Source of the DNA: Octopus vulgaris | Taxonomy: Eukaryota | Assembly: GCA_951406725.2 (NCBI GenBank) | Contig: OX597824.1 | Span: forward strand, 77,872,001 to 77,936,000 | DNA: 64,000 nt | Direction: 5' to 3' | Part shown: in pieces, positions 42,371 through 44,064 of the stretch | Layout of the letters: every line of letters starts with the position of its first letter | How positions within the stretch are numbered: position 1 is the stretch's first letter | Notes under the pieces: model-generated | What the model saw: only the letters and a program-made list of their open reading frames with translations | The model's database searches: none | Told to the model about the DNA's origin: nothing | Program-made: the position numbers and the translations under genes

Positions 42371-42676
42371 ATATATATATATATATATATATATATATAT
42401 ATATATATATATATATATATATATATATATATATATATATATATATATATATATATATATATATATTATGTGAAATAGAAGGATGAATAATCTTGTAGTA
42501 GATTAATCAAAAGTTTAACCGATACCTTAGTAGCAAAAATCACAGCAGTAAAACAGCACGGTTGGAGGTACAACCATATGGTGTTGCAACCGTGCGTTGG
42601 TGCGGATAATTGAAATTAGAACATTATTGGTGAATTGAAGAAATGGAGCTGAACGCAGATTGAACAGAAATCGTTT

Positions 42677-42770
42677 TATTTCATTCTACACGTGTTTCGA
42701 AAGGCACAAATTACCAAAATCCGATGGAATAATGGGACCATATTGTGTCTTTCTCTTCAGGAAGAAAATA
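42677..42770 (-). ncRNA. Type I hammerhead ribozyme (left arm of palindrome)
   Basis: Reverse complement of the 42902-42995 motif. Confidence 0.85.
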
Positions 42771-42901
42771 GGAAATCCGTTGGAAAAACAAAAACAGAAC
42801 AGAGGCGGAGCAAAAACAAATCGAACTATGCTCCTAAGAGCCCATAGTTCGATTTGTTTTTGCTCCGCCTCTGTTCTGTTTTTGTTTTTCCAACGGATTT
42901 C

Positions 42902-42995
42902 TATTTTCTTCCTGAAGAGAAAGACACAATATGGTCCCATTATTCCATCGGATTTTGGTAATTTGTGCCTTTCGAAACACGTGTAGAATGAAATA
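42902..42995 (+). ncRNA. Type I hammerhead ribozyme with long stem II (predicted cleavage after GUA at 42985)
   Basis: Stem I TATTTTCTTC/GAATGAAATA; CTGAAGA 42912-42918; stem II GAAAGACACAA/TTGTGCCTTTC; GAA-ACACGTGT-A. Confidence 0.87.
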
Positions 42996-44064
42996 AAACG
43001 ATTTCTGTTCAATCTGCGTTCAGCTCCATTTCTTCAATTCACCAATAATGTTCTATATATATATATATATATATATATATATATATTCCTATATACGTGT
43101 GTGTGTCTATTTTTATATATGTATATATACATATGTTGAGGCGCTTGGCTTCGTGGTTAGGGTGTCAACATCATGATCGTAAGATTGTGGTTTCGATTCC
43201 TGGACCGGGTGACGCGTTGTGTTCTTGAGCAAAACACTTCATTTCACGTTGCTCCAGTCCACTCAGCTGGCAAAAATGAGTAACGCGGCGATGGACTGGC
43301 GTCACGTCCAGCTGGGAAACACATACATATGACATTGAAATCGGGAAACGGGGCTCATGAGTCTGGCTAGGCTTTAAAAGGGCGCATTTATTTTATTTAT
43401 ATATACATATACAAATACATATATACATATATATATATATATATATATATATATATATATATATATATATATGCATGCATGCATATACATATACCTGTTA
43501 CTTTACCGGGACATCTTAATGTTTCGATGACTAGAGACTGCGTAGGGTTGAGGTTTCTCGACGTTTGGTTTTTATTTATACCAGTAATATAACACAGTAT
43601 AGAATTAAATCGACTATTTCTCTTAACATACAAACATTTGGCTTTGTTCCTAGTCAAAAATAATCTTTATACCTCCAGGCCATTCGCACACACACACACA
43701 CACATTGACACACAAACACATTCACACATGCACACCCACATGAAGAGTGTTTACTACACCTCCTTCTCTCACAAGATCTAACGATCACTCAATCAATAAT
43801 TTACATTGATAATTTGTATTTCAAAACTAAGAAATCTCTATTGATTTTTCTTCTAACTTCTTCAACAGTGCCAAGAACACTTGTATTATTAGCAATCGCA
43901 TCACTTTGTGCCAAGCTGATCTCCAATGATGTTGCTAGAAAGTGTGTAGGTGGTTGAAAATACACATATCTAGCAAAGCATTGCCCACAAACACCTTTCA
44001 TCTTACGATGGTCTGCTGATGTGTTTTCCCACCAGACTCTGTCCATACACTGTTTTCACAATAA

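Follow-up and report, generated by a model that had tools for sequence, protein, structure and literature searches.

Palindromic insertions of a young Hydra-type Penelope-like element in Octopus vulgaris as probable products of double target-primed reverse transcription

The window analysed, a stretch of 64,000 nucleotides of the Octopus vulgaris genome (contig OX597824.1), contains an inverted repeat of 439 bp at 42617-43055, read from one assembly (Table 1). The alignment of arm 42617-42830 with arm 42843-43055 resulted in 213 matches in 214 columns with one 1-nt gap, and the apex consists of GCTC (42830-42833), CTAA and GAGC (42838-42841), with a spacer of 12 nt. The earlier note had described a palindrome with a short hairpin apex, the right arm of which stops at a (TA)n run and the left arm of which continues unpaired for about 150 nt to another one, and this layout was confirmed, the runs being (TA)16 and (TA)49, respectively. 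The apex is wholly templated by the element from which the arms are derived and can form a 7-bp fold-back (ATG-GCTC/GAGC-CAT); the arms overlap there by 3 nt, CAT, within a natural small hairpin of the element.

Table 1. Features of the palindromic insertion and its flanks. Positions are those of the window; u denotes coordinates in the unit of the reference copy (L031/L032).
Feature	Position	Strand	Observation
Left-flank target microsatellite (TA)49, from which arm B was likely primed	42369..42466	.	48/52 sister pairs with (TA)n at both ends
Arm B, from u3249 to site B (a few nt past u3624)	42466..42845	sense on -	379/380 nt identical to the reference copy
Tail of about 147 nt between sites A and B, in arm B only; predicted hairpin inside	42466..42616	-	
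Hammerhead motif (type I), arm B copy; predicted cut after 42687 on -	42677..42770	-	
Head-to-head junction: arm B-templated 12-nt spacer, CAT microhomology and GCTC/GAGC stem	42828..42845	.	
Arm A, u3264 to site A (u3477)	42843..43055	sense on +	213/214 columns identical to the reference copy, one C missing
Hammerhead motif (type I), arm A copy; palindromic ACACGUGU helix III (dimer type); predicted GUA cut after 42985	42902..42995	+	
Right-flank target microsatellite (TA)16, from which arm A was likely primed	43054..43086	.	

The presence of a complete type I hammerhead on each strand had also been claimed. On the + strand the motif comprises CUGAAGA at 42912-42918, a stem II of 55 nt, GAAA at 42974, the palindromic ACACGUGU helix III region and the GUA of the predicted cut, with stem I pairing at 9 of 10 positions; the core of the mirror motif on the - strand lies at 42760. 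Besides the two matches in the arms, the 64-kb window contains no other match to a structural descriptor (core CUGANGA, GAAA and UH with helices I-III), and shuffling the 588-nt element 2000 times produced 0 hits. The Rfam search detected no hammerhead at the gathering score or at E<=10, the only matches being sub-threshold ones to generic hairpin (miRNA) models. Helix III of the monomer is 2 bp only, and stems I and III are absent from its predicted lowest-energy fold. In cofolding, two copies were joined via 8 intermolecular pairs of the ACACGUGU palindrome (-44.1 vs 2 x -15.9 kcal/mol), and the predicted dimer fold was also devoid of stem I. The word complete is thus justified for the core motifs, which are all present, whereas the activity is putative. 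The hammerheads would be passengers of the pseudo-LTR (pLTR) and are predicted to cut solely as dimers. Other hammerhead families were met in the fetched loci L001-L195, and their palindromic helix III loops differ (ACTGCAGT, ACAATTGT, ACGATCGT, ACAGCTGT and ACGGTATATCGT).

A read-through transcript of the palindrome was predicted to form a hairpin of -380 kcal/mol which would exclude both ribozyme folds. Together with the small RNAs yielded by rotifer Penelope-like elements (PLEs; PMC3846280), this could refer to a functional host element, that is, a selected hairpin/ribozyme switch which silences the family or is edited by ADAR. Such a role is very improbable for a copy this young (one change per arm relative to the reference copy), which is accompanied by many similar palindromes elsewhere in the genome, is devoid of the element's start site and has no host gene identified at its locus in the open-reading-frame listing. 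The single locus is most likely an ordinary transposable element insertion, i.e. inert debris.

Similar structures were observed elsewhere in the window. Another bipartite, inverted insertion, again flanked by (TA)n, lies at 42132-42369 and belongs to a different family (871 candidates) with tandem units of about 400 nt, a hammerhead (CTGAAGA...GAAACTGCAGTA, with palindromic helix III) and the same long-arm/short-arm layout. No protein match was obtained in the fetched flanks of this family, which is likely a retrozyme-type non-autonomous PLE. Older diverged palindromes beside (TA)n at 41160-41537 (arm identity 78%) and 20507-20764 (85%) are probably decayed insertions of a like type from other families. 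A fragment at 8500-8740 matches the RT thumb region of Hydra-type PLE proteins with approximately 40% identity.

When the right arm was queried against its own genome, 1127 first-look candidates were obtained, and the 40 that were scored were near-identical; the palindrome copy is one among hundreds of truncated copies of the family. The tandem array L031/L032 (G000:C1:119514150-119526700), with about 3.5 units which are >99.8% identical and an intact ORF in one of them, revealed a unit of 3,624 bp with an 895-aa ORF. This array is a candidate source copy and was used as the reference: the ATG is at u51, the stop at u2738, the hammerhead core at u3334, the cut after u3407, site A at about u3469-3477 and site B at u3624. 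The 895-aa ORF with YRDD is intact in 5 fetched copies. Its structure model (pLDDT 79) had telomerases as all five best Foldseek matches, and the predicted fold is telomerase-like, as of a telomerase-related RT; the Pfam search with the ORF and 10 aligned proteins and the PDB sequence search gave nothing significant. The C-terminal domain (VYQCKV...TYVG, R, CxxC..E, CxH) was folded confidently, resulted in no profile or fold match when searched alone, and was likened by eye to the EN block given for Hydra elements in PMC8557442 (supplement). Judged from sequence, the palindrome is a 5'-truncated insertion of a young Hydra-type PLE; the PLE pLTR origin and the hammerhead motif of the arms, both proposed in the earlier note, hold. 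Only 1 and 6 reads of the raw genomic runs X22 and X23, respectively, fell on the 3' part of the element, too few to be informative; contigs of runs X10 and X4, which may be RNA, also cover it.

Inverted 5'-truncated copies and tails are known features of PLEs (PMC8557442). The Hydra-clade EN+ PLEs described in that paper (Craig et al. 2021) share with the octopus element a single ORF with RT followed by a C-terminal EN of GIY-YIG type (putative in the octopus ORF), the DKT, CxxC and CxH motifs, a pLTR hammerhead, insertion into (TA)n, units in partial tandem, an inverted copy truncated at the 5' end and a one-ended tail. In the octopus ORF, DKG is replaced by DKT (DK[TS] in 70/70 homologues), and the EN motifs are present as CNLCVSE and CPH. 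In the RWK column RW is kept and the next residue is L (RW[KR] in 56/70 homologues). The CxCx5C linker, retained in 68/70 homologues, is degenerate: 40 of the 41 matched stretches read GCRSRNEYSD (EYG in 2 of these) and 1 reads GCRCRNEYSD; the region lies at about residues 735-760 of the ORF (L032:2289-4973). The (TA)n insertion, the pLTR hammerhead motif, tandem and partial-tandem pLTR units (partial in L122, L139 and L141, next to the full 3,624-bp tandem array), the inverted 5'-truncated copy and the one-ended tail were all found in the family. Since RWK reads RWL and CxCx5C is lost, the family is named Hydra-type and not a full member of the Hydra clade. The unit of 3.6 kb and the tail of 147 nt also differ from the values given for Hydra elements, usually <3 kb and 30-40 nt, respectively (PMC8557442). 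Further differences are the (TA)n targeting kept despite the lost linker motif and two long N/S-rich inserts, modelled with low confidence, which separate the RT from the putative EN (residues 488-559 and 633-763 of the L032 ORF) and resemble the asparagine-rich inserts of rotifer PLEs.

On the + strand, 392 ends abutting (TA)n were counted at site A and 747 at site B (the reverse-strand counts are inflated through overlapping matches). The two sites are 147 nt apart and fixed throughout the family, and the unpaired stretch of about 150 nt in the left arm corresponds to the PLE tail, which two RT start sites delimit. An older subfamily (L197-L233), about 93% identical to the reference copy, has the same A and B ends and a similar 5' start region. 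The earlier note had proposed that the cDNA was primed from the left (TA)n and that its 3' end then snapped back and copied itself. We still infer the first step for the long arm; the second finds no support as an explanation, as it does not account for a right arm that stops at the family-wide site A against (TA)n.

Among the 70 loci chosen by an A end, 52 were simple inverted A+B pairs and 18 were solo, complex or too short to align; the tally leaves out 12 site-A loci fetched earlier by other criteria, among them the palindrome of the window. One mis-paired row (L050) was retained in the analysis. An arm A is almost always paired, in inverted orientation, with an arm B, and the inner ends of the two are frequently unrelated. 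In 48 of the simple pairs (TA)n was found at both ends. According to the inner ends, which are BLAST or exact-walk estimates, arm A reached >50 nt further towards the 5' end in 27 of the 52 pairs, arm B reached further in 8, and the two were within 50 nt in 17. In 14 of the 27 A-longer pairs the two arms have no sequence in common, since arm B ends short of site A. A longer arm A is not copyable from arm B, and arm B is not copyable from arm A because the tail is present in B only; the asymmetric reach therefore requires two separately primed cDNAs in at least half of the pairs. For the same reason snap-back fails as an explanation of the family: in the 27 of 52 sister insertions the inverted arm exceeds its supposed template.

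The pairing was also observed from the other side, in 39 loci selected through a B end and not on the A list. In 22 of them the inverted A partner was clear, and in 5 it was a tiny arm identified by eye; 11 were solo or complex, 1 was complex (L219, where an arm B adjoins what looks like an A+A palindrome), and no B+B pair was found among the 39. The exceptions, besides L219 and the solo arms, are inverted partners ending at neither A nor B (L099, L132). Half of the short B arms, 7/14, end at u3533-3548, the foot of the predicted tail hairpin. A collision of B-primed RT with the site-A primer was considered and rejected, as the short B arms mostly stop at u3503-3594 and not at A. The joins show microhomology, often of 1-5 nt, or a few inserted bases. 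In L023, L205 and L050 unrelated sequence with a length of 112 to about 350 nt separates the arms and may represent captured DNA or RNA of the host.

The origin of the two arms was followed by shared alleles in 80 loci with an arm overlap of at least 30 nt, after 34 duplicate or array loci had been dropped. Recurrent alleles were common to partner arms in 180/185 cases vs 37% between arms of different loci, and rare alleles were shared 26 times in 28 kb of partner arms vs 9 times in 1.7 Mb. In 15 further loci 64 alleles were shared and 13 unshared by partner arms. The shared alleles imply a single source copy for both arms, read either as one RNA or as sibling transcripts, and in nested cases they also fit the copying of one arm from the other. 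The one-base deletion of arm A was tried as a marker of a second source element and rejected. The deletion was found at 15 places, and of 11 loci with at least 2 covering arms it was present in one arm only in 10 (6 A, 3 B, 1 other) and in both in 1; being recurrent and arm-private, it is uninformative on the source.

Near-perfect palindromes are a known long-read artefact, and the junction of the window copy is read from the assembly alone, which would be compatible with a fold-back chimeric read or a library artefact. That the whole structure is of such origin is hardly credible: the right arm stops at the family-wide site A, the same layout was met in dozens of loci, in the older subfamily and in a second family, and the arms also hold private differences.

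The 5' ends of the templates have probably left traces in the inner ends of the arms. A non-genomic base was found before u3240, the A of CAGT, at 61 sites, being G in 45, A in 12 and T in 4 (a listing count for u3240 only). The excess of G has a p of about 2e-12 against an expectation of 0.3. All 22 inspected sites (in 20 loci) were true junctions, on A and B arms alike. In L176 both arms begin at u3240, each with an extra G, 1 nt apart. In L180, L182 and L183 the extra G heads A arms whose B partner is shorter; in others, such as L184, L190 and L191, the partner arm could supply the G, and at least one of the A cases sits within a long arm. Copying of a cap leaves an additional G of this kind, and u3240 is likely the capped RNA start of the element. 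In the palindrome copy, the junction is 9 (arm B) and 24 nt (arm A) inside this putative start.

The second putative RNA end coincides with the hammerhead cut. Arms beginning at the base after the cut numbered 17 vs 2 at a control position. Symmetric junctions occurred 18 times at the cut and 3 times at each of two control positions; of the 18, 12 were left when 4 loop-palindrome-centred ones and 2 possible duplicates were subtracted (p 0.004). In L152, L155 and L156 both arms start at the ribozyme cut with 0-3 nt between them. These footprints in sister copies point indirectly to cleavage by the ribozyme in vivo and to copying of the cleaved RNA.

Near-symmetric junctions exceeded the number expected under independence, 17/52 pairs being within 50 nt (6.6 expected) and 15/52 within 25 nt (3.5 expected). 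The two RNA 5' ends, u3240 and the cut, account for a part of the symmetric junctions. Many of the near-symmetric ones lie at u3260-3330, off both the cap site and the cut, and could be due to resection before joining or to a cis fold-back step; several junctions are centred on short palindromes (TTTCGAAA, ACACGTGT). This excess counts against two primers being the whole explanation, as it is equally accounted for by cis fold-back or by a shared RNA end. The surplus, the junction palindromes and the templated 7-bp apex hairpin would all fit a hybrid reaction for the symmetric copies including that of the window, in which A and B are both primed, the B cDNA copies itself via the CAT/GAGC hairpin and the A-primed cDNA captures the new strand. 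We consider it unlikely, as the junctions of L176 and of L152/L155/L156 leave no workable loop and a second primer is still required.

A pure snap-back, in which one cDNA folds and copies itself by self-priming and the site-A end results from endonuclease resolution or microhomology joining, was given a smaller chance still. At the window locus it would be in accord with the apex hairpin, with arm A being nested in arm B and with the source variants common to both arms, and in PMC8557442 the tail is put down to EN-mediated resolution. It is impossible for the 27 A-longer pairs, 14 of them non-overlapping, and does not fit the extra G on the A arms of L180, L182 and L183. For these reasons snap-back is not the rule of the family.

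The two arms of the palindrome copy were probably made by double target-primed reverse transcription, the evidence being the genomic fossil copies of one assembly. The endonuclease would nick both (TA)n strands, and the two 3' ends would prime separately, at site B and at site A, via a 1-3 nt AU match, after which both cDNAs would proceed toward the RNA 5' end. The template could be one RNA read twice or two sibling transcripts tethered by protein or by the hammerhead dimer. One RNA copied twice would need an RT without RNase H, and the RT of PLEs is not known to have one. The 3' ends of the cDNAs would be joined head-to-head by microhomology or a template jump, followed by fill-in. In symmetric copies both cDNAs would have reached the RNA 5' end; in the window copy both would have come almost to u3240 and been joined on CAT inside the natural hairpin, and such a join near the capped start would lead to the near-perfect palindrome. 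As arm A is nested in arm B at this locus, the pairing of CAT in cis and in trans results in identical sequence, and a fold-back step could therefore have occurred at this one apex.

In LINE-1 twin priming the RNA already being copied is primed once more, from the other target strand, which results in a 5' inversion; the LINE-1 priming occurs at variable internal sites and without sequence duplication. In contrast, the second site of the octopus element is fixed and the overlap is usually copied twice.

The closest biochemical parallel is the Poseidon PLE of Anolis (Frangieh et al. 2024, PMC11167929), which in vitro cleaves and extends both target strands and starts RT at two internal sites bounding the tail; its dimerisation is predicted. 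A hammerhead near the ORF start is common to both elements, and the two RT start sites and the cutting and extension of both strands would be shared as well. In the consulted part of that paper the two sites are not tied to inverted arms, the ribozyme is dispensable in vitro and no RNA-seq reads end at the cut, whereas in octopus the A and B ends are partners inside one insertion and genomic copies start at the cut. Inverted PLE copies were explained by Arkhipova et al. (2013, PMC3846280) by self-priming on an antisense template. The copies described there resemble the octopus ones in head-to-head inverted pLTRs, junction palindromes and a tail on one arm; unlike that model, the unequal reach of the octopus arms and the added G on A and B arms alike point to two primers on a capped sense RNA. 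The hammerheads are similar to the dimeric type I ones of metazoan PLEs (Cervera and de la Pena 2014, PMC4209133) in the short helix III with palindromic loop, the G10.1-C11.1 pair and the long helix II, and differ in a helix II of about 55 nt. Opposite-strand hammerhead pairs 100-700 bp apart were already noted there, and that paper states that in vivo evidence of cleavage was lacking. No statement of a two-site double-priming model was found in the literature searched, which covered mostly papers available without subscription (the early Penelope mechanism work thus falling largely outside it) and included the retrozyme preprint 10.64898/2026.07.22.740005, consulted in part. The octopus family differs from known PLEs in the 147-nt tail, the strict A-B pairing and the footprints of cap and cut.

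In a broader form, to which we give an even chance, the double priming would be programmed in PLEs: a dimeric RT-EN would hold one capped RNA at two fixed start sites, prime both target strands, copy the RNA twice and close the product by a jump to the partner cDNA. Tail and inverted pLTR would then both result from one reaction, and the genome would record in vivo hammerhead cleavage and the capped start at single-base resolution. The origin of the inverted and tandem structures of PLEs was named as an open problem in PMC8557442, and in vivo cleavage by PLE hammerheads was unproven in PMC4209133 and undetected in PMC11167929, as far as the consulted parts of these papers go. In the octopus, a young family with hundreds of copies and intact ORFs provides counts that exclude simple snap-back as the rule, and a set of substrates suited to in vitro work. 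Targeting of (TA)n persists in it without the linker zinc motif (CxCx5C) proposed to mediate it. The counts also locate both RT start sites, a likely start at the cap and the site of ribozyme cleavage, and the copies of the family make the integration of PLEs directly testable.
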